A stretch of DNA of 64,000 bases from Acidobacteriota bacterium (GTDB lineage: Bacteria; Acidobacteriota; Thermoanaerobaculia; Multivoradales; UBA5704). The position numbers and the translations under genes were made by a program. Under the pieces are notes generated by a model, which was given only the letters and a program-made list of their open reading frames with translations, did not search any database and had not been told where the DNA came from. Shown here one piece after another: positions 7,629-34,298 of this stretch; within the stretch, counting starts at the first letter, position 1; each line of letters begins with the position of its first letter. The stretch is from NCBI GenBank assembly GCA_040005235.1, contig JBDTZG010000020.1, forward strand, positions 1 to 64,000. The letters are read 5' to 3'.

Positions 7629-10178
7629 ATGTCCTCGACTTCCTTTTTCGAAACGACCCTCCAGGATCTCGGCTACGCCGTTCGCACCCTGCGCAAGAGC
7701 CCCGGGTTCACGGTGATCGCGGCGTTGTCGCTCGCCCTCGGGATCGGGGCGAATACGGCGATCTTCAGTTTGATCTCGGCGCTTATTCTTCGGCCTTTGC
7801 CCGTGGAAAATCCGAAGGCCTTGGTGGTGATCGGCGACGGCTCGCGGATCGGCTCGATTTCAAGCGGCAGCCTGCGGCCGGAGATCTACTCGGTCCCCAT
7901 GTACCGTGAGCTCAAAGCGCAGAATCGGTCGTTCTCCGGCATCCTGGCGTCCGGAACGTCCGGACGGGTACTGTTGGGATTGGGCAGCGGGCACACGGAG
8001 CCCGAAGATCCGAACGCTCCCGGGGCTTCCGTGCGGGGCCGGTTGGTGTCGGGCAACTACTTTTCGGTCCTCGGCGTACCGGCTTTTGAGGGACGGACCT
8101 TTAGCGAAGCCGACGACCAGGCGCCGGGAGCCTCCCCTTTCGTCGTCGTGAGCCATGACTTCTGGCAACGGCGCTTGGAGAGCGACCCGCACGCGCTCGG
8201 CCGCAAGATCACGCTCAACGGCTCGCCGTTTTCAATCGTCGGGATTGCTCGGCCCGGATTTACCGGCGAGATCGTCGGCAACGCCACCGAGGTTTGGATT
8301 CCGCTTTCGATGCAAGAGCAGATCAACCCCGGGCGATCGTTCGGCACACATTGGGAGATCAGCTGGCTGCTGCTGATGGGCCGCACCCGACCGGGGGTTT
8401 CGCTTTCGGCGGCGCGCGCCGAGGTCCAGGGGCTGTTCCACCGCATGATCGCCGCCCAACCGCCGAACCTCGTCGCTGCCGAAGAACGCGACGAGTTAGG
8501 CCGCGCCGAGGTGCCGGTGAACCCGGGGGCGAATGGCTTATCGCGCCTGCGCAACCAATTTGGGCATTCGTTGTTCACCTTGCTTGCGATCGTCAGCCTG
8601 GTCTTATTGGTCGCCTCGGCCAACGTAGCGAATCTGCTGCTCGAACGGGCGACCGGTCGAAAGAAGGAGATCGGCGTTCGCCTCGCGCTCGGCGCCGGCC
8701 GCGGTCGCCTGGTGCGCCAGCTGCTGACCGAGAGCTTGGTTCTCGCACTGCTCGGCGGAGCGCTTGGCCTGGTATCGGCGTTCTGGGCCGACACGGCCCT
8801 GGTCCGTCTGGTGGCAGGGCCGTCGAGCGCGCTCGACCTTCGTCCCGATCTGTCGGTTCTCGCCTTCACCGCGTTCCTCTCGCTGGTCACGGCGATCGTC
8901 TTCGGGCTCGCCCCCGCGCTCACCGCGACCCGCGTCGAGCTGGCTCCCACTCTCAAGGAAAGCTCGCGCTCGCTCGCGGGCGGCTCGGGCAACCGCTGGC
9001 CGCTCGGCAAGATCTTGGTGATCGCCCAATTCGCCCTCTCCCTCCTGCTGCTGGTGGGAGCCGGGCTGTTCGTCCGGACGCTCCAAAACCTCGAACGCCT
9101 CGATCTCGGCTACAAGCGCGAGGGGCTGTTGATGGCGAGCCTCGATCCGATCGGCGGCGGTGTTTCGCTCGAACGCTTCGAGCCCTTCGCCACCGACCTG
9201 TTCGAACGGCTGAAAGCCGTCCCCGGGGTCGCCGCGGTCACCGCCTCGGAAAATGGCCTGTTCAGCGGCACGGAATCCTCCACCGGCGTGCGAATCGAAG
9301 GCTATTCGACGGGGGCCGACGGCGATCCTGAGGTGGACACGGACCAGGTGGCTCCGGCCTACTTCGAAGTCGTGGGCATCCCAATCCAGTCCGGCCGGGA
9401 CATCTCCGCCGCCGACCGCAAAGGAGGCGCCGCGGTGGCGGTGGTCAATCGGGCGCTGGTCGAGACCTACTTCAAGGGCGCGAATCCGCTCGGCCGCCAC
9501 ATCTCCACCTACGATCAAGAGGGGAAAACGACCGCGATTTACGAAATCGTCGGAGTTGCCGCCAACTCGCGCGACCATGAGCTGCGCGGCACCGTTTCGC
9601 CCCGGTACTTCACCGCGATGCTCCAGGGCGAGCGGCCACCCTCGCGGCTGAACCTGGAGATCCGCGCCGCTCAACCCGACGTGACCAAGCTGGCGGTGCG
9701 CAAAGCGCTTCTCGCCGCGTATCCGCAGGTGCCGCTCGAAGACCTGGCGTCGCTGTCTTCCTCGCTCGGCGATCAGGTCCAGGACGAGCGCCTGATCGCC
9801 AAGCTGTCCGCGATCTTCGGCCTGCTCGGGTTGGTACTTGCCGCGATCGGTCTGTACGGCGTGGTCTCGTACGCAATCGCCCGCCGCACCCACGAGCTGG
9901 GGTTACGCATGGCGCTGGGCGCGCAGCGAACCAAAGTTCTTTGGATGGTTCTGCGCGAGACGCTGCTTCTAGCTTTAGCGGGCACCGCCCTCGGCATTCC
10001 GGCGGCGCTCGCCGCGACACGCGCGGTCGAAAGCCGGCTCTTTGGCCTTTCCCCCACGGATCCGGCGACCCTGGCGGTCGCAGTGGGAGTCCTGCTTGCG
10101 GTCGCTCTGGTGGCGGGCAGCGTCCCGGGAGCGCGGGCGACCCGGGTCAATCCGGTCCAGGCGCTGCGCTACGAATAG
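7629..10178 (+). CDS. Acidobacterial duplicated orphan ABC permease (ADOP; MacB/FtsX-like, duplicated)
   Basis: QDLGYAVRTLRKSPGFT...LGIGANTAIFS; NVANLLLERA...EIGVRLALGAGRGRLVRQLLTES; GLYGVVSYAIARRTHELGLRMALGA; RVNPVQALRYE. Confidence 0.92.
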   Translation: MSSTSFFETTLQDLGYAVRTLRKSPGFTVIAALSLALGIGANTAIFSLISALILRPLPVENPKALVVIGDGSRIGSISSGSLRPEIYSVPMYRELKAQNRSFSGILASGTSGRVLLGLGSGHTEPEDPNAPGASVRGRLVSGNYFSVLGVPAFEGRTFSEADDQAPGASPFVVVSHDFWQRRLESDPHALGRKITLNGSPFSIVGIARPGFTGEIVGNATEVWIPLSMQEQINPGRSFGTHWEISWLLLMGRTRPGVSLSAARAEVQGLFHRMIAAQPPNLVAAEERDELGRAEVPVNPGANGLSRLRNQFGHSLFTLLAIVSLVLLVASANVANLLLERATGRKKEIGVRLALGAGRGRLVRQLLTESLVLALLGGALGLVSAFWADTALVRLVAGPSSALDLRPDLSVLAFTAFLSLVTAIVFGLAPALTATRVELAPTLKESSRSLAGGSGNRWPLGKILVIAQFALSLLLLVGAGLFVRTLQNLERLDLGYKREGLLMASLDPIGGGVSLERFEPFATDLFERLKAVPGVAAVTASENGLFSGTESSTGVRIEGYSTGADGDPEVDTDQVAPAYFEVVGIPIQSGRDISAADRKGGAAVAVVNRALVETYFKGANPLGRHISTYDQEGKTTAIYEIVGVAANSRDHELRGTVSPRYFTAMLQGERPPSRLNLEIRAAQPDVTKLAVRKALLAAYPQVPLEDLASLSSSLGDQVQDERLIAKLSAIFGLLGLVLAAIGLYGVVSYAIARRTHELGLRMALGAQRTKVLWMVLRETLLLALAGTALGIPAALAATRAVESRLFGLSPTDPATLAVAVGVLLAVALVAGSVPGARATRVNPVQALRYE

Positions 10179-10181
10179 GTA

Positions 10182-10213
10182 AGCCCTCACCCCCCGCCAG
10201 GGGGTGAGGGGCT
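10182..10213. terminator. Bidirectional hairpin terminator between convergent genes
   Basis: AGCCCTCACCCCC...GGGGGTGAGGGGCT inverted repeat. Confidence 0.65.
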
Positions 10214-10220
10214 AGCGGCA

Positions 10221-10730
10221 CTACGCGCCGCCGGGGTTCGACTTCCCGCCTTCGCGGGAGAGGAAATTCTCGACCGAGAGCAGTCGATCGGTGCCGGCGC
10301 GCTGGATGACCTGGAGCAGATTGCCCATCGAGCTCATCTCTTCGAGCTGCTCGTCGACGAACCAATCGAGGAACCGGCGGGCGATGTGGTTCTTATCCTC
10401 GACCGCGATGTCGAGCAGATCGTAGATCTGCTGCGTCACTTGCTTTTCCCACTGAAGGGCAAGCTGCGCCGCCTCCTCGGCGGAGGCGAAATCGCATTTC
10501 GACTTGGCGATCGCCGGGATTTCCACCCGGCCGCCGACGTCGACCACGAATTTGACGAATTTCATCGCGTGCATCCGCTCTTCGTCCGCCTGGCGATAGA
10601 AGAAGCTCGCAAGCTCCGGCAGCGCCGCGGAATCGAAATAGGCGGCCGAGGCGATGTATTGAATCGATGCGCCCATCTCATGGGCGATCTGGGCGTTGAA
10701 GGCGGCGATCAGGCGTTCGCTGGCGTACAT
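10221..10730 (-). CDS. ftn: Non-heme ferritin
   Basis: FNAQIAHE...Y...FFYRQADEERMHAMKF...WEKQVT...FLDWFVDEQLEE ferroxidase centre; GGAG RBS. Confidence 0.92.
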   Translation of the reverse strand: MYASERLIAAFNAQIAHEMGASIQYIASAAYFDSAALPELASFFYRQADEERMHAMKFVKFVVDVGGRVEIPAIAKSKCDFASAEEAAQLALQWEKQVTQQIYDLLDIAVEDKNHIARRFLDWFVDEQLEEMSSMGNLLQVIQRAGTDRLLSVENFLSREGGKSNPGGA

Positions 10731-15575: not shown

Positions 15576-16586
15576 ATGTCCATTTCCGAGTCTGCGTCGA
15601 ACACGTCTACGAATCCCGTCTATCGTCTGATCATCCTCGGCTCCGGCCCGGCCGGATTGACCGCTGCGCTCTATGCCGCGCGGGCTGATCTGGCTCCTTT
15701 GGTGCTCGAAGGGAACCAGCCGGGCGGCCAGTTGACGATCACCACCGAGGTCGAAAACTTCCCCGGTTTCCCCCAGGGGATTCTCGGTCCCGAGCTGATG
15801 GAAAAAATGCGCGAGCAGGCTCAGCGCTTCGGCGCGCAGGTGAAGTTTGAGGCGGCGATTGACCTCGATCTGTCCGAGCGCCCGTTTACCGTGCGCACCG
15901 ACGAAGGCGTCTACCGCGCCCACTCGCTGATCCTTTCGACCGGCGCCACGGCGAAGCTCGGCGGCTTGGCGGCCGATCAGGAGCTGATGGGCTACGGCAT
16001 TTCCGCCTGCGCCACCTGCGACGGTTTCTTCTTCCGCGACAAGGAGGTCGTGGTGGTCGGAGGCGGCGACTCGGCGATGGAAGAGGCGATGTTCCTCACC
16101 AAGTACGCCTCCAAGGTCACCGTTTTCCATCGTCGGCGCGAGCTGCGCGCCTCGCGGATCATGCAGGACCGGGCTCTCACCAATCCAAAGATCGCCTGGC
16201 TGTGGAATTCCGAAGTGATCCACGTCCTCGGCGACCGAGAGACTGGCGTCACCGGCATTCAGGTGCGCGATACCGAGACCAGCGCTTTAAGCGAGTACCC
16301 GGCGCAGGGGCTGTTTTATGCCATCGGCCACGTGCCGAACACCCAGCTGTTCAAGGGCAAGCTCGAAATGAACGCGGGCGGATACTTGATCGTCGACGAA
16401 CCCTCGACCCGCACCCAAATCCCCGGCGTGTTCGCGGCGGGCGATGTGACCGACCCGACCTACCGCCAGGCGATTTCCTCGGCCGGCAGCGGCTGCAAGG
16501 CGGCGATCGACGCGGAGCGATTCCTCTCTGAACACGCGGTGGAGCCGCTGGCTGTACCGGTTCTGGCAGAAAAGGCGGCCCACTGA
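15576..16586 (+). CDS. trxB: Thioredoxin-disulfide reductase
   Basis: ILGSGPAGLTAALY, GGQLTITTEVENFPGFP, SACATCDGFF, VVGGGDSAMEEA, GVFAAGDV; CAGGAGG RBS. Confidence 0.96.
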   Translation: MSISESASNTSTNPVYRLIILGSGPAGLTAALYAARADLAPLVLEGNQPGGQLTITTEVENFPGFPQGILGPELMEKMREQAQRFGAQVKFEAAIDLDLSERPFTVRTDEGVYRAHSLILSTGATAKLGGLAADQELMGYGISACATCDGFFFRDKEVVVVGGGDSAMEEAMFLTKYASKVTVFHRRRELRASRIMQDRALTNPKIAWLWNSEVIHVLGDRETGVTGIQVRDTETSALSEYPAQGLFYAIGHVPNTQLFKGKLEMNAGGYLIVDEPSTRTQIPGVFAAGDVTDPTYRQAISSAGSGCKAAIDAERFLSEHAVEPLAVPVLAEKAAH

Positions 16587-18091
16587 TGTCGAAGCGACCG
16601 ACCACACTTGGGGCATTGCGCGAAACCGGCTATCGCCCCCGTTCGGTGAAAAGCGAGCTGCGCGCCAATTTGCGCGAACGGATCAAGTCCGGCAAGCCGC
16701 TCTTTTCCGGGATTCTCGGCTACGACCGGACAGTCATTCCCGGCGTGGTGAATGCCCTGCTCGCGGGGCATGACTTCATCCTGCTCGGCCTGCGCGGCCA
16801 GGCGAAGACGCGCATCCTGCGCGGGTTGATCGATTTTCTCGACCCGGAGGTGCCGATCCTCACCGGTTCCGAGCTGAACGACGATCCGCTCGCGCCGATC
16901 TCGGTCCCCGGCCAGCGCCGGGTGGCCGAAGCGGGCGACGAAACGTCGATCGAATGGCTGCCGCGCGAGGCGCGCTACAACGAGAAGCTCGCAACGCCGG
17001 ATGTCTCGATCGCCGACCTGCTGGGCGACATCGACCCGATCAAGGCCGCCACCCGGCGCCTCACGTTCGCCGATCCGGAGGTGATCCACTTCGGCATCAT
17101 CCCGCGGACCAACCGGGGGATCTTCGCGATCAACGAGCTGCCCGACTTGGCGCCGCGCATTCAGGTCGGCTTGTTCAACCTGCTCGAAGAGCGCGACCTG
17201 CAGATCCGCGGATTTCCCGTGCGCATCCCGCTCGACCTGATGATGTGCTTTTCGGCGAACCCCGAGGACTACACGAACCGCGGCTCGATCATCACGCCGC
17301 TCAAAGACCGGATCGCCTCGCAGATCCTCACCCACTATCCGCCGGACGCCGAGACCTCGGCCGCGATCACCCGCCAGGAGGCGTGGACCGACCGCGACGT
17401 GCCGGGCCTGGAAATCCCCGACGAGATCCGCATGCTGGTCGAAGAGATCTCGATCGTGGCGCGCGAAAGCGAGCTGGTCGATCAGTCCTCAGGTGTCTCG
17501 GCGCGGGTGGCGATCGCCGCTCTCGAATTGCTCACCTCGAACCTCGAACGCCGGCAGCTGAAGACGAACGAGGCGCAGATCTTCCCTCGGTTGGCCGACC
17601 TGCAAATGCTGCTTCCCGCCATCACCGGCAAGGTCGAGATGGTCTACGAAGGGGAGCAGCAGGGGGCCGAAGTGGTCGCCCGCCGCCTAATCGGCCTCGC
17701 GGTGAAGAAGGTATTCGACGCCGGCTTCCCCGAGATCGGCAAAGAGCTGGGCAGCCGCGGCGTGGACGACGACGGGCCGTATTCGGGGATCGTCCGCTGG
17801 TTCGCGGCGGGCAACGAAGTCTCGCTCTCGGACGAGCAGACCGCCACCGAGTACCACGGCGAGCTGGCGCGCGTTCCCGGCCTGTTCGACCTCGTCGAGC
17901 GCTACCGCGGCCAGAGCGCCACGGAAGCCGAAAAAGCGCTCGCCGCCGAAATCGTGCTCGAAGGGCTGCACCAGCATCTCAAGCTCGCCCGCCACGACCT
18001 CGACAGCCGGATCAGCTACAAGGAGCTGGTGAAGTTCCAACTCCTGAAGCCGCGGCGACGGGGCGGCCGGTCGGAGAGCGATCTGAACTAA
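16586..18091 (+). CDS. ChlI/MoxR-like AAA+ ATPase ('magnesium chelatase' family, Rv0958-like)
   Basis: LLGLRGQAKTR variant Walker A, INELPDL, SANPEDYTNRGSIITPLKDRIASQILTHYP; coupled to trxB by a TGATG overlap. Confidence 0.88.
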   Translation: MSKRPTTLGALRETGYRPRSVKSELRANLRERIKSGKPLFSGILGYDRTVIPGVVNALLAGHDFILLGLRGQAKTRILRGLIDFLDPEVPILTGSELNDDPLAPISVPGQRRVAEAGDETSIEWLPREARYNEKLATPDVSIADLLGDIDPIKAATRRLTFADPEVIHFGIIPRTNRGIFAINELPDLAPRIQVGLFNLLEERDLQIRGFPVRIPLDLMMCFSANPEDYTNRGSIITPLKDRIASQILTHYPPDAETSAAITRQEAWTDRDVPGLEIPDEIRMLVEEISIVARESELVDQSSGVSARVAIAALELLTSNLERRQLKTNEAQIFPRLADLQMLLPAITGKVEMVYEGEQQGAEVVARRLIGLAVKKVFDAGFPEIGKELGSRGVDDDGPYSGIVRWFAAGNEVSLSDEQTATEYHGELARVPGLFDLVERYRGQSATEAEKALAAEIVLEGLHQHLKLARHDLDSRISYKELVKFQLLKPRRRGGRSESDLN

Positions 18092-18103
18092 AGGGACGAT
18101 GAC

Positions 18104-18131
18104 ACCGGGCGGAGGAGACCCGCCGCCCGGT
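18104..18131. terminator. Hairpin between the convergent AAA gene and the small peptide gene
   Basis: ACCGGGCGG...CCGCCCGGT inverted repeat. Confidence 0.65.
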
Positions 18132-18146
18132 CGCTTCATCGCTCGA

Positions 18147-18320
18147 CTAGGCGCAGGGGCAGCTGTTGGCCGCGCCACCCGTGGCGCAGCAAACGATCCG
18201 GCTCTTGGTGCAGGTGAAATTGCAGGTCGCGGTGTTGATGTCGCCCGCCACCGCTTCCCGGCTGTCGATCTGGCGCAAAGTTTCCCGCGAAAGCGACAAC
18301 TTCAGGTTCCGCTTCTTCAT
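18147..18320 (-). CDS. Putative RiPP (lanthipeptide-like) precursor peptide, 57 aa; not in the ORF track
   Basis: MKKRNLKLSLSRETLRQIDSREAVAG-DINTATCNFTCTKSRIVCCATGGAANSCPCA*. GAGGGAGGAGAGGG RBS upstream, hairpin downstream, KLxLxRETL leader, Cys/Thr/Ser-rich core. Confidence 0.82.
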   Translation of the reverse strand: MKKRNLKLSLSRETLRQIDSREAVAGDINTATCNFTCTKSRIVCCATGGAANSCPCA

Positions 18321-18433
18321 TTCCCTCTCCTCCCTCGATTCGAGACGATCCCTTTCGCCCCGCTACATCCTCAGTGCCGCGAGAGGGCGTTTCTGGGGCT
18401 TTGAGGTCCCTCGGATCGTGCGATGATCTCCCC

Positions 18434-19036
18434 ATGGCGATCGCACAGACGAAACCGCGCCTCTCCCCGGCGGAGTACCTGGAAATCGAACGGGCGGCCG
18501 AGACCAAGAGCGAGTACATCGAAGGCGAGATGTACGCGATGAGCGGCGCGAGCTACGCTCACAACGTGATCGTGACAAATCTCGGTGCCGGCCTTCACGC
18601 CGCGCTCAAGGGCGGTCCGTGTCGCCCGGTCGTAAGCGACATGCGGGTTAAGGACGACAGCTCGGAGCTGTACACCTACCCGGATGTCGTGGTCGTCTGC
18701 GGTAAGCCGCGGTTCGAGGAAGAAGCCTACCTCGACACCCTGATCAACCCGGTTTTGCTGATCGAGGTTCTGTCACCCTCGACCGAGCGCCACGACCGGG
18801 GCCTCAAATTCGCCTACTACCGTTCGATTCCGTCGCTCCGCGAAGTGCTGTTCGTCGCCCAAGACCGACCGGTCGTCGAGCGCTACACCCGAATGAACAA
18901 CGGCGACTGGGCGCTGCACGTTACCGAAGGGTACGACGCGACGATCGATCTCCCGAGCGTCGGCGTTCAACTGCTGCTCGCCGAGATCTACGACGGCGTC
19001 CCCAAGGGATCTTCCAGGGCGAAGCGGGAATCTTGA
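18434..19036 (+). CDS. Uma2 family endonuclease
   Basis: LSPAEYLEIERAAETKSEYIEGEMYAMSG...YPDVVVVC...NPVLLIEVLSPSTERHDRGLKFAYYRSIPSLRE. Confidence 0.92.
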   Translation: MAIAQTKPRLSPAEYLEIERAAETKSEYIEGEMYAMSGASYAHNVIVTNLGAGLHAALKGGPCRPVVSDMRVKDDSSELYTYPDVVVVCGKPRFEEEAYLDTLINPVLLIEVLSPSTERHDRGLKFAYYRSIPSLREVLFVAQDRPVVERYTRMNNGDWALHVTEGYDATIDLPSVGVQLLLAEIYDGVPKGSSRAKRES

Positions 19037-19094: not shown

Positions 19095-20183
19095 ATGCGC
19101 CATAAATACGCCTGGCTCGACCCCGAACTTCTTCGCGCCCTCATGGCGGGGATGGATCTGCTGCGCCTGTTCAACCAGCTGGTGCTCGCCGCCGGGGGGG
19201 ACCCGGAAGAGGCGATGAACTGGATGCGCGAGCTTCAGGCGCAGGGATATCTGCCCGAGAACCTGGACCTTGAGGAGTTCTTTGAGAGCCTGGAGGATCA
19301 GAATCTGATCGGCCGCGACCAGGAGGGCGGGATGTCGCTCACCTCGGGCGGCGAGCGGAAGATCCGCAAGAGCGCGTTCGAGGAGATCTTCGGCGGGCTC
19401 GACCGGTCGTCCGCCGGCTACCACCCGATCCACTCCTCCGGCGAGGGGATCGAGCGCCAGCCGGAGACGAAGCCGTGGAGCTTCGGCGACGACTTGAACC
19501 TGCTCGACTCTGCCCGGTCGCTGCAAAACGCCATGCGGAGGACCAAAGGTGAGCTCGATCTGGCCGAAGAGGACCTCGAAGTCTTCGAGACCGAGCACAT
19601 GACCTCGTGCGCGACGATCGTGGCGATCGACGTCAGCCACTCGATGATCCTCTACGGCGAAGATCGGATCACCCCGGCGAAGACCGTCGCCTTGGCGCTC
19701 ACCGAGCTGATCACCACCAAGTACCCGAAAGACCACCTGGGGGTCATCCAGTTCGGCGACCGCGCCGAGCCGATGAAGCTTTCCGATCTTCCTTACCTTC
19801 AGGCCGGGCCGTACCACACCAATACCCGAGAGGCGCTCCAGCTCGCCCGCGGCCTCCTGTCGCGGCAGAAGCAGCCGAACAAGCAGATCTTCTTGATCAC
19901 CGACGGCAAACCCTCGGCGATCACCGAAGGGGGGCACGTCTACAAGAACCCCTTCGGGCTCGACATGCGAATCGTCAACCTGACGCTCGAAGAGGCCGAC
20001 CACTGCCGTCGGCAGAAGATCGTGATCACCACCTTCATGCTCGCAACCGATCCGATGCTCACCGACTTCGTCGAGAAGCTGACCCAGATCAACCGCGGCC
20101 GCGCCTACTTCGCCTCGCCCTACAACCTGGGCGAGTTTCTGCTCGCGGATTACATCCGGAACCGGCGGAAGCGGGTGCGGTAG
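19095..20183 (+). CDS. VWA domain protein (Rv0959-like partner of the ChlI/MoxR-like ATPase)
   Basis: MIDAS DVSHSM, TNTREAL, ITDGKPS. Confidence 0.9.
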   Translation: MRHKYAWLDPELLRALMAGMDLLRLFNQLVLAAGGDPEEAMNWMRELQAQGYLPENLDLEEFFESLEDQNLIGRDQEGGMSLTSGGERKIRKSAFEEIFGGLDRSSAGYHPIHSSGEGIERQPETKPWSFGDDLNLLDSARSLQNAMRRTKGELDLAEEDLEVFETEHMTSCATIVAIDVSHSMILYGEDRITPAKTVALALTELITTKYPKDHLGVIQFGDRAEPMKLSDLPYLQAGPYHTNTREALQLARGLLSRQKQPNKQIFLITDGKPSAITEGGHVYKNPFGLDMRIVNLTLEEADHCRRQKIVITTFMLATDPMLTDFVEKLTQINRGRAYFASPYNLGEFLLADYIRNRRKRVR

Positions 20184-30616: not shown

Positions 30617-31480
30617 TTACCGAGAGAACGTGTCGCAGTCGTTCGGGTCGCCCGACTGGAGGCCCCGACGAAGCCACTCGGAACGCTGAGCGGCCGTTCC
30701 GTGGGTGAAGCTCTCGGGAACGACGTACCCTTGCGTCTGCTTTTGGATCTCGTCGTCGCCGATCGCCTGGGCGGCTTTCAATCCCGATTCGAAGTCGCCC
30801 GGCTCGATCATATTGTAGTCGTGGTCGGCGTGGTACGCCCAGACCCCCGCCAGACAATCGGCCTGCAGCTCCATCTTCACCGACAGGTCGTTCGCCTGCC
30901 CTTCGTCCCGGGCGCGCTCCTGGGCATCGCGCACGTTCTGATCGATTCCCAGGAGATTTTGGACGTGATGGCCGATCTCGTGGGCGACGACGTACGCCTC
31001 GGCGAATTCACCCGGCGCGCCGAAGCGCTGGGAGAGCTCGGCGAAAAACGCGGTGTCCAGATAGACCTTCTGATCGGCCGGGCAGTAGAACGGACCGACC
31101 GCCGCCGAGGCCATGCCGCACTGCGAAGGGATCGAGCCCGAGAACCGCACCAGATGCGGATCTTGGTAGGGCGTCTTGGTGTTCGCGAGCAGCTTGGTCC
31201 AGACGTCCTCGGTGCTGCCGAGAACCGCCCCGACGAACTTCCCCTCTTGATCGGGCGCAGGCGTCGTGCCGTCTCCCGAAGGAACGGTCTGCGCCGGGCC
31301 GCCGCCCTGGGTCTCCTGGATGGTCTGCAGCAGTTGGAGCGGGTTCCGGCCGGTGACCAGGGCGAAAATGATCACCAGGACCATGCCGCCGCAACCGATG
31401 CCCAAACCCCGTCGTCCACCGCCCCCGCTGCCGCGCACGTCCTCGACGTTGGTGCTCTGTCTCCCGCCTTCCCATCTCAT
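30617..31480 (-). CDS. ypfJ: Neutral zinc metallopeptidase (YpfJ family)
   Basis: MRWEGGRQSTNVED, GPFYCPADQKVYLD, YVVAHEIGHHVQ, ELQADCLAG, VPESFTHGT, CDTF. Confidence 0.92.
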   Translation of the reverse strand: MRWEGGRQSTNVEDVRGSGGGGRRGLGIGCGGMVLVIIFALVTGRNPLQLLQTIQETQGGGPAQTVPSGDGTTPAPDQEGKFVGAVLGSTEDVWTKLLANTKTPYQDPHLVRFSGSIPSQCGMASAAVGPFYCPADQKVYLDTAFFAELSQRFGAPGEFAEAYVVAHEIGHHVQNLLGIDQNVRDAQERARDEGQANDLSVKMELQADCLAGVWAYHADHDYNMIEPGDFESGLKAAQAIGDDEIQKQTQGYVVPESFTHGTAAQRSEWLRRGLQSGDPNDCDTFSR

Positions 31481-31570
31481 GCCGCAATTGTAGCCTGAAG
31501 ATGGGGAACAAATGCCATGGTTTCCCGGTCCGAAGTTAGAATCGTTCGATCTTCCGGAGAAACCTAGCTC

Positions 31571-32110
31571 ATGAGACCGAGATTCCTCCTGCTGCTCGCC
31601 CCGCTCCTGCTCGCCGCCTGCGGCGGTTCCTCCGGTTCCCCGAGCGGGGAGGCGAAGGGCACGGCGGCTGCAAAATCCGCGGTCTCTTCGATCGACGCCT
31701 GCGATCTGTTTCCGGACGACGAGGCGAACGCGATCGCCAGAGGGTACGTCTCCGGCATGAGCAGCACGTTGGAGGACGCCAAGGGGCGCGATCCGCTCTC
31801 CTGCGCCTACAACGCCGGATCGACCGAGCAGCCGAGGATCTTGAGCCTCGTCGTCCGCCTGCATGAGACCCCCGAGCGGGCGGAGCGTACCCTCCTCGCC
31901 ACGCGTGGCGCGCTCGACACGCTCACCCACGGCGACCTGAAGGACGTGCCGAACCTCGGCGACGGCGCCTTCTGGGCGGGAGGGCGCTTGATGCAGCTCC
32001 ACGTCCGCAAAGGGGAAAAGCAGCTCCTGATCACCTGCCAGCTGAACGACCCGGCGGCCTCGTTCGCCGGAGCGCAAAAGATCGCCAAGGCCGCGCTCGG
32101 CCGGCTCTAG
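31571..32110 (+). CDS. Lipoprotein, hypothetical
   Basis: Lipobox LLAAC; DACDL...CAY...VPNLGDGAFW. Confidence 0.8.
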   Translation: MRPRFLLLLAPLLLAACGGSSGSPSGEAKGTAAAKSAVSSIDACDLFPDDEANAIARGYVSGMSSTLEDAKGRDPLSCAYNAGSTEQPRILSLVVRLHETPERAERTLLATRGALDTLTHGDLKDVPNLGDGAFWAGGRLMQLHVRKGEKQLLITCQLNDPAASFAGAQKIAKAALGRL

Positions 32111-32127
32111 ACGTCCGGGCCGCCTCC

Positions 32128-33555
32128 ATGTGGTCCGACCGCCCCTCCGCACCCGTCCGCGCCCGCCGGGAAAAACGCCTTCGCGCGCTGCTTCCCGCAC
32201 CGCGCGAAGGAGCGCGGGGATCGAAAACTCCCCTACGCGGCACGGCTTCCCCCGAGCAGGTGGCCGAGGCGCTGCGGCGGCTGCCGGGCTTCGCCTGGCT
32301 CGACGGCGGGGCCGAAGGTCACCGGCTGGCCGCCCAGCCGATCGCGCAGCTTGCCGTGCGCGCCGGCCGGGCGACCGTTTCGACCGCGGCCGGGCAGGCG
32401 ACGTTTGCCGCCCGAGGATTCGATCTCCTGGAATCCGCCCTTTCCGTCTGGGGCGGAGCGGGGGGACTTCTGCTCGGCTATCTCGGCTACGAGCTGGGCG
32501 CGGAGATCGAAAAGCTGCCGACCCCGCCGCCGGACGACCTTTCGCTCCCCGACCTCAAGCTCTCGCTGTTCGATCGTGTGCTGCTCTGGGACGGCAAGCA
32601 CTGGGCGCTCGAATCTTCCAACGCCTGGCGCGGCGGAAATCCGACCGATGAGGCGGAGGCTCTGCTCGCCCGCGCCGCCGCGCTCGACATTCCCCCGCTC
32701 GAAAGGCTCGCCACACGAACCCATGTGGCAAGCCGGCCGACCCGCGACGGATTCGAGGCGGCGGTTTCGCGCACGGTCGAGCGGATCGGCCAAGGCGAGA
32801 TCTTCCAGGCGAACCTCTGCCGGCGGCTCGAAGCGCCCTGTGCCGCCCCTCAAGTCTGGCCCCTCTACCGCCGCCTGCGCGCCGCGAGCCCGGCGATCCG
32901 CGGCGCGTTCTTCGACCTCGGCGCGGGCCGCGCGCTCCTGTCGATCTCGCCCGAGATCTTCCTGTCGGTGCGCGGGCGCGCGGTCGAGACCCGGCCGATC
33001 AAGGGAACCCGTCCCCGCGGCAGGAACCCGCACGAAGATCGGGCGCTTGCCCGCGAGCTGGTCGAAAGCGCCAAGGACAAGGCGGAGCTCGCGATGATCG
33101 TCGACGTGGCGAGAAACGATCTCGGTCGGGTGGCAGAGCCCGGCTCGATCTCGACACCCACACTCGGCGAGCTCTCGACCCTGCCCACCGTCCACCATCT
33201 CATGGCGGTCGTCCGCGGCACGCTCCGCCGCGACGTCGGCCCAGCCGACCTGCTGCGCGCGACGTTTCCCGCAGCCTCGATCTCCGGCGCGCCGAAGATC
33301 CGGGCGATGGCGGTGATCTCGGCCGAAGAGGAGCGGCGCCGCGGCCCGGCGATGGGCGCGTTCGGCTGGATCTCGTTGAATGGCGACCTGGAGCTGGCGG
33401 TCGCGATCCGCACCGCGGCGGTCGCAAAGGGAAAGATCGCCTACCACGCCGGTTGCGGCATCACGGCCGACTCGCTTCCCAATCTCGAACGGGAGGAGAG
33501 CGAAGCGAAGGCCGCGGCATTCCTGACCGCGATCGGCGGACTGGAATTCGATTGA
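32128..33555 (+). CDS. pabB: Aminodeoxychorismate synthase component I / anthranilate synthase-like chorismate-binding enzyme
   Basis: GYLGYELG, GEIFQANL, SPEIFL, TRPIKGTRPRG, KDKAELAMIVDVARNDLGRV, SISGAPKIRAM, VAIRTA. Exact start uncertain. Confidence 0.85.
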   Translation: MWSDRPSAPVRARREKRLRALLPAPREGARGSKTPLRGTASPEQVAEALRRLPGFAWLDGGAEGHRLAAQPIAQLAVRAGRATVSTAAGQATFAARGFDLLESALSVWGGAGGLLLGYLGYELGAEIEKLPTPPPDDLSLPDLKLSLFDRVLLWDGKHWALESSNAWRGGNPTDEAEALLARAAALDIPPLERLATRTHVASRPTRDGFEAAVSRTVERIGQGEIFQANLCRRLEAPCAAPQVWPLYRRLRAASPAIRGAFFDLGAGRALLSISPEIFLSVRGRAVETRPIKGTRPRGRNPHEDRALARELVESAKDKAELAMIVDVARNDLGRVAEPGSISTPTLGELSTLPTVHHLMAVVRGTLRRDVGPADLLRATFPAASISGAPKIRAMAVISAEEERRRGPAMGAFGWISLNGDLELAVAIRTAAVAKGKIAYHAGCGITADSLPNLEREESEAKAAAFLTAIGGLEFD

Positions 33556-34298
33556 GCGCCCTCGACGCCCTCCAGGTGGCCTGGTGGAACGGCCGCCTCG
33601 TCCCGCGCGCCGAGGTGAAGATTTCCCCCAACGACGCGGGATTCCGTTTCGGAGATGGCCTGTTCGAAACGCTCCGAGTGGACCAAGGCGCCGCAATCGA
33701 CGTCGAAGCTCACCTCGACCGGCTATTCGCTTCCCTGCCACGCATCTCGCTGGACGTGCCTGAAGATCGAGCGGCCCTCGACCAGGCGATCGCCGAGGTG
33801 GCAACCGCCGCCCCGTGGCCCTGCGCCCGCCTACGCCTCACCGTCACCCGAGGAACGCCAGGCGACGGACCGACCCGCCTGATCGAAGCCTTCCCCTACA
33901 CGCCGCCCAATCCCGACGCCGACTTGACCGTCGTTCTGCTTGCCGAATTCCGCATCGATTCCCGTGGCCCGCTCGCGGGGCTAAAAAGCCTCTCCTATCA
34001 GGCGAACCGCCTCGTTCTCGCACGCGCCACGGTCGCAGGAGCCGACGAGGCGATCCTGCTGAACGAACGGGGCGAGCTGTGCGAAGGGTCGCGCAGCAAC
34101 CTGGCGCTGCGGCTCGACGGAAAGTGGCTCACGCCGCCGATCCGCTCCGGCTGCCTGCCCGGGACGGTCCGGCGGCGGCGACTCGAACGGGGCGAGGTCG
34201 AAGAGCGGGATCTCCTGCCGGAGGATCTCGATCGCTCGGAGGGGATCGAGCTGATGAACAGCCTTTGGGGCGTGGTGGCGGGTCGGCGGATCGGGTAA
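33552..34298 (+). CDS. pabC: Aminotransferase class IV (4-amino-4-deoxychorismate lyase-like)
   Basis: DAGFRFGDGLFETLR, HLDRL, RLTVTRG, GLKSLSY, CEGSRSN, GCLPGTVR; TTG start overlapping the pabB stop. Confidence 0.82.
   Translation: MSALDALQVAWWNGRLVPRAEVKISPNDAGFRFGDGLFETLRVDQGAAIDVEAHLDRLFASLPRISLDVPEDRAALDQAIAEVATAAPWPCARLRLTVTRGTPGDGPTRLIEAFPYTPPNPDADLTVVLLAEFRIDSRGPLAGLKSLSYQANRLVLARATVAGADEAILLNERGELCEGSRSNLALRLDGKWLTPPIRSGCLPGTVRRRRLERGEVEERDLLPEDLDRSEGIELMNSLWGVVAGRRIG

Follow-up and report, generated by a model that had tools for sequence, protein, structure and literature searches.

The closest described relatives of the gene analyzed here are class I lanthipeptide precursors (LanA) from Bacteroidetes. 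According to excerpts of Walker et al. (2020; PMC7268733), these precursors have an LxLxKx5L leader, many of the leaders end in Gly-Gly, and a C39 protease is often encoded in the same cluster. Leaders of this type are curated as NCBIfam NF038153 (lant_leader_L1a). Named examples include the pinensins (PMC7268733) and PedA15.2 of Pedobacter lusitanus. The dehydratases of class I use glutamyl-tRNA (excerpts of PMC9993889). A second described system, the prochlorosins of marine picocyanobacteria, is modified by the class II enzymes ProcM and SyncM. As presented in excerpts of PMC10783134, PMC9872173 and PMC8524650, scattered precursors that share a leader are served by very few enzymes.

We found that a short gene from an Acidobacteriota bacterium resembles the L1a precursors in its leader and core, and the prochlorosins in its genomic arrangement. 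From comparisons of sequence, we consider it quite probable that the product of this gene is a class I lanthipeptide precursor that is functional, has a leader of the LxLxKx5L, double-glycine type and is processed in trans.

The gene is in the window, that is, the whole 64-kb stretch of DNA analyzed, which is part of contig C21 of a 6.2-Mb genome (G000; 100% complete by marker genes). It occupies positions 18147-18320 on the minus strand and has an ATG start and 57 codons followed by a TAG stop (18147-18149), as read from the sequence and its translation. An initial annotation of the window had proposed this 57-aa ORF, and the translation quoted there matched ours. The strong ribosome-binding site described in that annotation is also present: a GGAGG Shine-Dalgarno (SD) sequence lies at 18329-18333 (minus strand), 8 nt upstream of the ATG. 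The predicted leader, residues 1-26 (MKKRNLKLSLSRETLRQIDSREAVAG; 18243-18320, minus strand), contains the motif LxLx(K/R)x5(L/I) from L8 to I18 and ends in Ala-Gly. The predicted core, residues 27-57 (18150-18242, minus strand), is 31 aa long, and a composition count gave the 6 Cys, 5 Thr and 2 Ser initially reported.

A GC-rich hairpin (~18096-18142, minus strand) lies 3' of the precursor stop, between the convergent stops of the precursor (18147) and a 501-aa ORF (18091). Its calculated folding energy is -32.3 kcal/mol (z = -3.62), which was equaled by 1 of 200 shuffled sequences. When flanking sequences were read by eye, a GC-rich inverted repeat was found in this slot at 5 of 5 orthologous loci, with sequences that differed from one another. 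The initial annotation had called the hairpin a terminator. The stable hairpin is there, but its U run is weak, and a consensus scan of 17800-18700 called no promoters and no terminators. The hairpin is likely a terminator, maybe a bidirectional one.

Orthologs of the gene were found in the same slot in four of the seven other genomes of the genus (91% identity in G003, 60% in G004 and G007, 54% in G001). Another was found in a metagenome-assembled genome labeled as a Holophagales bacterium; its peptide is identical to that of G004 and so is not independent. The slot is between the 501-aa ORF and a gene encoding a protein with a vWA domain. Proteins encoded by the flanking genes are 94-100% identical to those of the window, compared with 54-91% for the peptide. 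The reading frame, SD sequence and hairpin are intact in all five genomes that have the precursor slot. Across the 10 pairs of precursor orthologs, dN/dS was always below 1, ranging from 0.04 to 0.70. All eight candidates from a public protein collection were homologous (61-98% identity) and are annotated as unnamed or "hypothetical".

We aligned 11 orthologs (54-98% identity), including the eight public homologs. Cys was invariant at 6 of 6 positions in the core. Six of the seven Ser/Thr positions were strictly Ser or Thr, with swaps between the two at positions 30, 32, 36 and 47, and invariant Ser at 40 and 53. The remaining core positions were variable in 15 of 18 cases. Leaders ended in GG or AG. 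Based on these comparisons, the 57-aa ORF is a real gene under selection. Both hydroxyls and thiols appear to be under selection, and this fits the prediction for a substrate of dehydration and cyclization.

The slot itself has other features. The 501-aa ORF (window 16586-18091, plus strand) had no Pfam family at E<=1e-6 and yet is 96-98% identical across the genus. It is always paired with the vWA-domain gene (window 19095-20183, plus strand), so that a conserved two-gene unit is split by the precursor slot. A Uma2-family gene (PF05685; window 18374-19036, plus strand) separates the precursor from the vWA gene. This small indel beside the precursor is present in the slot of the window genome, G003 and G007 and missing from locus L055.

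The window gene belongs to a large paralog family. We scanned the whole genome for the leader, as the initial annotation had suggested. A regular expression for the leader matched 23 short ORFs, 22 of them plausible, and a looser pattern combined with filters gave 31. A profile built from those 31 detected 39 members with distinct cores on 30 contigs among 96,679 six-frame ORFs, all with E<=1.3e-3; nothing further appeared in that search up to E=10. With the reversed genome as a decoy, the profile had no match at E<=1e-3 among 130,205 ORFs. When the window copy was left out and a profile was built from the remaining 37 paralogs, the window ORF scored E=2.4e-8 against it (search space, 96,679 six-frame ORFs). 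Upstream of 34 of the 39 paralogs there is an SD-like motif, which was seen at 2537 of 20,000 (12.7%) ATGs chosen at random from the genome.

Thirty-eight of the 39 paralogs are intact. The exception, on contig C24 (L032:6115-6204; G000:C24:59259-59348), has a normal leader with a stop directly after it, and two TAG codons in the read-through. This truncated copy is probably a pseudogene and evidence for continuing loss of precursors.

The leaders of the 38 intact paralogs are conserved and the cores are not. In the leader, L8, L10, E13 and G26 are each conserved in at least 90% of the paralogs, and T14 is invariant. Mean pairwise identity is 0.41 for leaders, 0.24 for cores, and 0.12 for cores outside of Cys. 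Core length has a median of 33.5 aa, and the cores have 2-9 Cys (median 6); Cys accounts for 16.5% of residues in cores and 0.1% in leaders. None of the 38 cores has fewer Ser plus Thr than Cys, and 22 of the 38 have an odd number of Cys. Relative to Cys, Ser/Thr is enriched at positions -1 (39%) and -5 (42%), and the spacing between Cys residues peaks at 4. That is, the cores have a repeating (S/T)-C-x3-(S/T)-C pattern, which is unlike the motifs of nisin or mersacidin. Lipid II motifs of the nisin type and of the mersacidin type were found in 0 of 38 cores each.

The leader is of a known type. NF038153, a model for class I lanthipeptide leaders, matched 28 of the 38 paralogs at E<=1 (best E, 3.9e-6). 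NF038158 matched five of 38, and TIGR04149 matched five of 38 weakly (best E, 0.0031). The window peptide itself had no match to any NCBIfam or Pfam model at E<=10 in direct scans, so its membership in the family rests on the profile of its paralogs. Its leader fits LxLxKx5L, as L8-K-L10-S-R12-ETLRQ-I18, with Arg replacing Lys and Ile replacing Leu, and ends in Ala-Gly26 rather than Gly-Gly. The initial annotation had assigned the leader to the type that characterizes class I lanthipeptide precursors, and both the NF038153 matches and the published motif agree with that assignment. It had also suggested that the peptide might represent an undescribed system. This does not hold for the leader type, which is curated (NF038153) and described in excerpts of Walker et al. 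(2020; PMC7268733). Judged through its paralogs, the peptide is a further member of a curated kind, not an undescribed kind.

The window copy and its paralogs share several properties with the L1a precursors: the same leader motif and a Gly-Gly-type site together with a C39 protease-transporter (NF038153; excerpts of PMC7268733), as well as a Cys/Ser/Thr-rich core and LanB and LanC as separate enzymes (NF038153). They differ in phylum, being from Acidobacteriota and not from Bacteroidetes, and the window copy falls below the reporting threshold of NF038153. They also differ in organization. The L1a family is described through gene clusters (excerpts of PMC7268733), whereas here there are 17-56 precursors per genome, most of them far from enzyme genes. 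For an L1a precursor, a position beside LanB or LanC would be expected. That is not so for the window copy, and it is so for family members in the related genomes G005, G025, G027 and G030.

Genes for a class I enzyme set are present in the genome, away from the window. The initial annotation saw no maturation enzymes in the 64 kb, and genome-wide family searches bear this out for contig C21, on which we found no LanB, LanC, Lant_dehydr_C, C39, SPASM or YcaO. It had proposed a search for maturases in the rest of the genome, where we found one LanB, three LanC and one C39-peptidase ABC transporter (C39-ABC). The single LanB (1125 aa, contig C66) has both dehydratase domains (PF04738 and PF14028), and its neighbors are glycine-cleavage, SUI1 and solute-transport genes. 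The single C39-ABC transporter (LanT; 795 aa) is also on C66, 41.5 kb from LanB. The three stand-alone LanC (467-502 aa), on contigs C8, C35 and C115, are the only ORFs in the genome with a LanC domain. LanC matched NisC (2g02; E 5.7e-6) and a LanC-like structure (8byk; E 2.6e-12). All three, and 7 of 7 aligned LanC sequences, keep the Cys...Cys-His zinc triad. The intact triad matters because stand-alone LanC-like genes without it have been reported in Bacteroidales (excerpts of PMC10352776). Searches for DUF4135 (LanM) gave no match genome-wide, and the control for the same search also matched nowhere. Three SPASM genes and one YcaO are also encoded, and each is more than 75 kb from every precursor.

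Directly upstream of the LanC gene on C8, and on the same strand, is a gene for an M1-family peptidase of 950 aa that has HEAT repeats (L022:9341-12190; G000:C8, ~31340-34189). This peptidase could be a leader-trimming aminopeptidase.

Some precursors are still next to an enzyme gene. On C115, a precursor is directly upstream of LanC. On C35, two tandem precursors are directly upstream of LanC, and a third precursor is 3.8 kb downstream. The precursor-LanC pairs of both contigs recur in G001, G002 and G003. The window precursor had been called an orphan. The description is correct locally, with no enzyme on C21, but not for the family, of which four paralogs adjoin LanC.

We also looked at the neighborhoods of the remaining precursors. 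The 225 ORFs within 4.5 kb of them are of many kinds, with no LanB, LanC, SPASM or YcaO among them. A single plain radical SAM gene was found, next to a type III PKS, as was a single MbnB-like gene. Repeated types of neighbor were peptidases (three M28, two reprolysin-like and one S8), three CHAT proteins and two MacB/FtsX permeases. The possibility that a dedicated partner gene travels with each copy was rejected; the 225 neighboring ORFs had no recurrence beyond these scattered types.

In related genomes, family members occur inside canonical lanBC clusters. We confirmed these clusters with the family profile and Pfam. The G030 cluster has lanA-lanC-lanB and a methyltransferase-like gene followed by C39-ABC. 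The G027 cluster has HlyD, C39-ABC (lanT), lanA, lanC and lanB, and a second locus in G027 has lanB, six tandem lanA and C39-ABC. The G025 cluster has two lanC, two lanA and lanB. In G005, which is of the same genus as the window genome, lanT (C39-ABC), a precursor (E=1.5e-12) and lanB are contiguous within 5.6 kb (L101:2965-8567; G005:C448); the precursor is between lanT and lanB and on the opposite strand. Compared to the 41.5-kb gap between lanT and lanB in the window genome, this arrangement looks like an intermediate in the breakup of a cluster. The enzymes of the window genome are similar over their full lengths to the clustered homologs: 45-49% identity for LanB, 54-56% for LanT and 34-44% for LanC.

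The LanB at the six-precursor locus of G027 (L068:4782-8864; G027:C7) is 1361 aa long. Its dehydratase domain is preceded by an N-terminal extension of ~330 residues, which matches no Pfam family at E<=1e-8.

We found precursor matches in 24 of 41 genomes of the order, from 0 to 56 per genome and ~700 in total. Each of the eight genomes of the genus has 17-56 precursors, exactly one LanB, two to four LanC matches, and one C39-ABC of ~797 aa. All 24 genomes with precursors have a match to PF04738 (LanB). In contrast, a PF04738 match was found in 7 of the 17 genomes that lack precursors, and it was strong in only one of these. Because the genomes are related and not independent of one another, this co-occurrence should be read as a pattern and not as the outcome of a statistical test. 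Elsewhere in the phylum, an even sampling of 80 genomes from 67 genera yielded a single genome with a match at E<=1e-6, and that match was inside a 487-aa ORF.

Individual precursors come and go. When the window genome was compared with that of a sister species, G003, 14 of its 39 precursors had a counterpart (>=70% identity, >=80% coverage) among the 30 of 33 G003 precursor loci covered. Judged from this comparison, turnover of precursors between sister species is fast.

We propose the following pathway for the window peptide. The 57-aa peptide would be produced from a small transcription unit of its own, and its conserved leader would be recognized in trans by the single LanB encoded on C66. 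LanB would glutamylate the conserved Ser and Thr of the core and eliminate the glutamate to give dehydro-residues. One of the three stand-alone zinc-binding LanC would then add the six Cys thiols to form up to six (methyl)lanthionine rings. Finally, the single C39-peptidase ABC transporter would cut after Ala-Gly26 and export a 31-aa polycyclic peptide. The ~39 fast-diverging paralogs would share these few enzymes, giving the lineage a combinatorial library of peptides. The initial annotation had raised the idea of a dispersed, genome-wide library processed in trans. This idea is well supported by the genomics: there are 39 paralogs, a few distant LanB, LanC and C39 genes, and clusters in relatives. 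For the window copy, we infer all four steps, the ring pattern, and any antimicrobial or signaling role. Several observations count against the pathway. The window peptide reaches no NCBIfam or Pfam model, its contig has none of the enzyme genes, and its leader ends in Ala-Gly rather than Gly-Gly. Ser/Thr is most enriched directly before Cys, and such a pair is unable to form a ring. In addition, one LanB acting on 39 cores would need a tolerance for substrates of which we saw no class I example in the literature searched.

It is possible that the peptide is instead an unmodified, disulfide-bonded bacteriocin or signal peptide of the double-glycine type. In this case the C39-ABC transporter would cut and export it, LanB and LanC would not act on it, and its six Cys would form three disulfides. 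The double-glycine-type leader, the one C39-ABC in the genome, the even number of Cys in the window core and the lack of a modifying enzyme nearby would all be expected. Disulfides do not account for the hydroxyl residues, however. Six of the seven Ser/Thr positions are strictly kept, swaps included, against variation at 15 of the 18 others; Ser plus Thr is never fewer than Cys; and a majority of paralog cores (22 of 38) have an odd number of Cys. The family is also found inside lanBC clusters of relatives, and LanB occurs in every genome that has precursors (24/24). We regard a disulfide-bonded peptide as unlikely. The initial annotation had offered a disulfide or metal-binding peptide as its alternative, and the conserved Ser/Thr and odd Cys numbers make this less likely.

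It is also possible that the window gene is a silent or decaying relic of a broken ancestral cluster, neither expressed nor processed now. The cluster is indeed fragmented, the C24 paralog is truncated after its leader, and copies are lost often, as seen in the comparison with G003. Against this, the window copy has kept an intact frame, SD sequence and hairpin in all five genomes with the slot, dN/dS was below 1 in every pair, and its Cys and Ser/Thr are conserved over 11 orthologs with 54-98% identity. Across the eight genomes of the genus, the genes for LanB, LanC and LanT have all stayed intact. A relic seems decidedly unlikely. Modification by a different class of RiPP enzyme, either a radical SAM/SPASM protein (as for the TIGR04149 leader family) or an enzyme of the MbnB/TglH type, would be consistent with the weak TIGR04149 ("rSAM-modified RiPP") matches of five paralogs, with the three SPASM genes and one YcaO of the genome, and with an MbnB/TglH-like gene 3.3 kb from the paralog on C9. 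But the SPASM and YcaO genes are all more than 75 kb from every precursor, the 225 neighboring ORFs hold just the one plain radical SAM gene by the type III PKS and the one opposite-strand MbnB-like gene, and matches to the lanthipeptide leader model are far more common (28 of 38 paralogs). We think it highly improbable that such an enzyme modifies the window peptide.

A class I precursor modified in trans by LanB and LanC is the reading we prefer, and for the family as a whole it invites comparison with the prochlorosins. We lean slightly toward the view that the acidobacterial family, with its LanB and LanC enzymes, is a class I equivalent of the prochlorosin system. In this view, 17-56 scattered, hypervariable precursors that turn over rapidly would share a single tRNA-dependent dehydratase, two to four cyclases and a single C39 exporter. 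The traits held in common with prochlorosins are a shared leader (0.41 identity), hypervariable cores (0.12 outside of Cys), a large number of copies (39) spread over 30 contigs, and very few enzymes to serve them; turnover between sister species is fast here. The enzymes differ from those of the prochlorosins, which are of class II: here there is LanB plus a separate LanC and no match to LanM, though the DUF4135 control also matched nowhere. The leader is not of the Nif11 or NHLP type (the window peptide had no Pfam match at E<=10), and the lineage and habitat are different as well.

Compared to nisin-type clusters (NisA/NisB/NisC/NisT/NisP), the same two-enzyme chemistry is expected. In contrast to the nisin type, there is no FNLD-type leader, no nisin lipid II motif in any of the 38 cores, and the genes are unclustered; leader removal would be by the C39 domain of the transporter and not by a subtilisin. 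The rSAM-modified precursors of TIGR04149 ("GG_sam_targ_CFB") have a similar basic N-terminus and a Gly-Gly leader. Unlike these, the precursors described here have no SPASM partner near any copy, and the window peptide has no match to the model.

We did not find a class I precursor library in Acidobacteriota in the open-access literature searched, and the search found no lanthipeptide papers on Holophagae; the precursor tables of Walker et al. (2020) might already list acidobacterial members. The novelty lies in the architecture: a class I enzyme set that would serve dozens of scattered, hypervariable precursors in Acidobacteriota. Natural combinatorial lanthipeptide libraries, as described in excerpts on the prochlorosins, use class II enzymes, whereas in this soil lineage dozens of unrelated cores appear to depend on one class I dehydratase. 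If so, this LanB is unusually tolerant of its substrates, and the cluster broke apart while the substrate family expanded. LanB and LanC of this genome would then be attractive tools for making lanthipeptide libraries, and the family would offer a case, open to dating, in which a biosynthetic gene cluster dissolves as its substrates multiply. The ~700 precursor matches in 24 of 41 related genomes could be an untapped set of polycyclic peptides. Genome mining that is based on clusters and confined to the vicinity of lanB and lanC would miss most such precursors.

The gene near the C9 paralog (L026:1767-3313; G000:C9, ~9053-10599) encodes a RiPP-modifying enzyme of the MbnB/TglH/ChrH type (PF05114; E 5e-58) and is on the opposite strand from that precursor. 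Adjoining it are a 201-aa ORF with no Pfam family and then a reprolysin-like peptidase that is convergent with the precursor. This locus may be a separate RiPP system.
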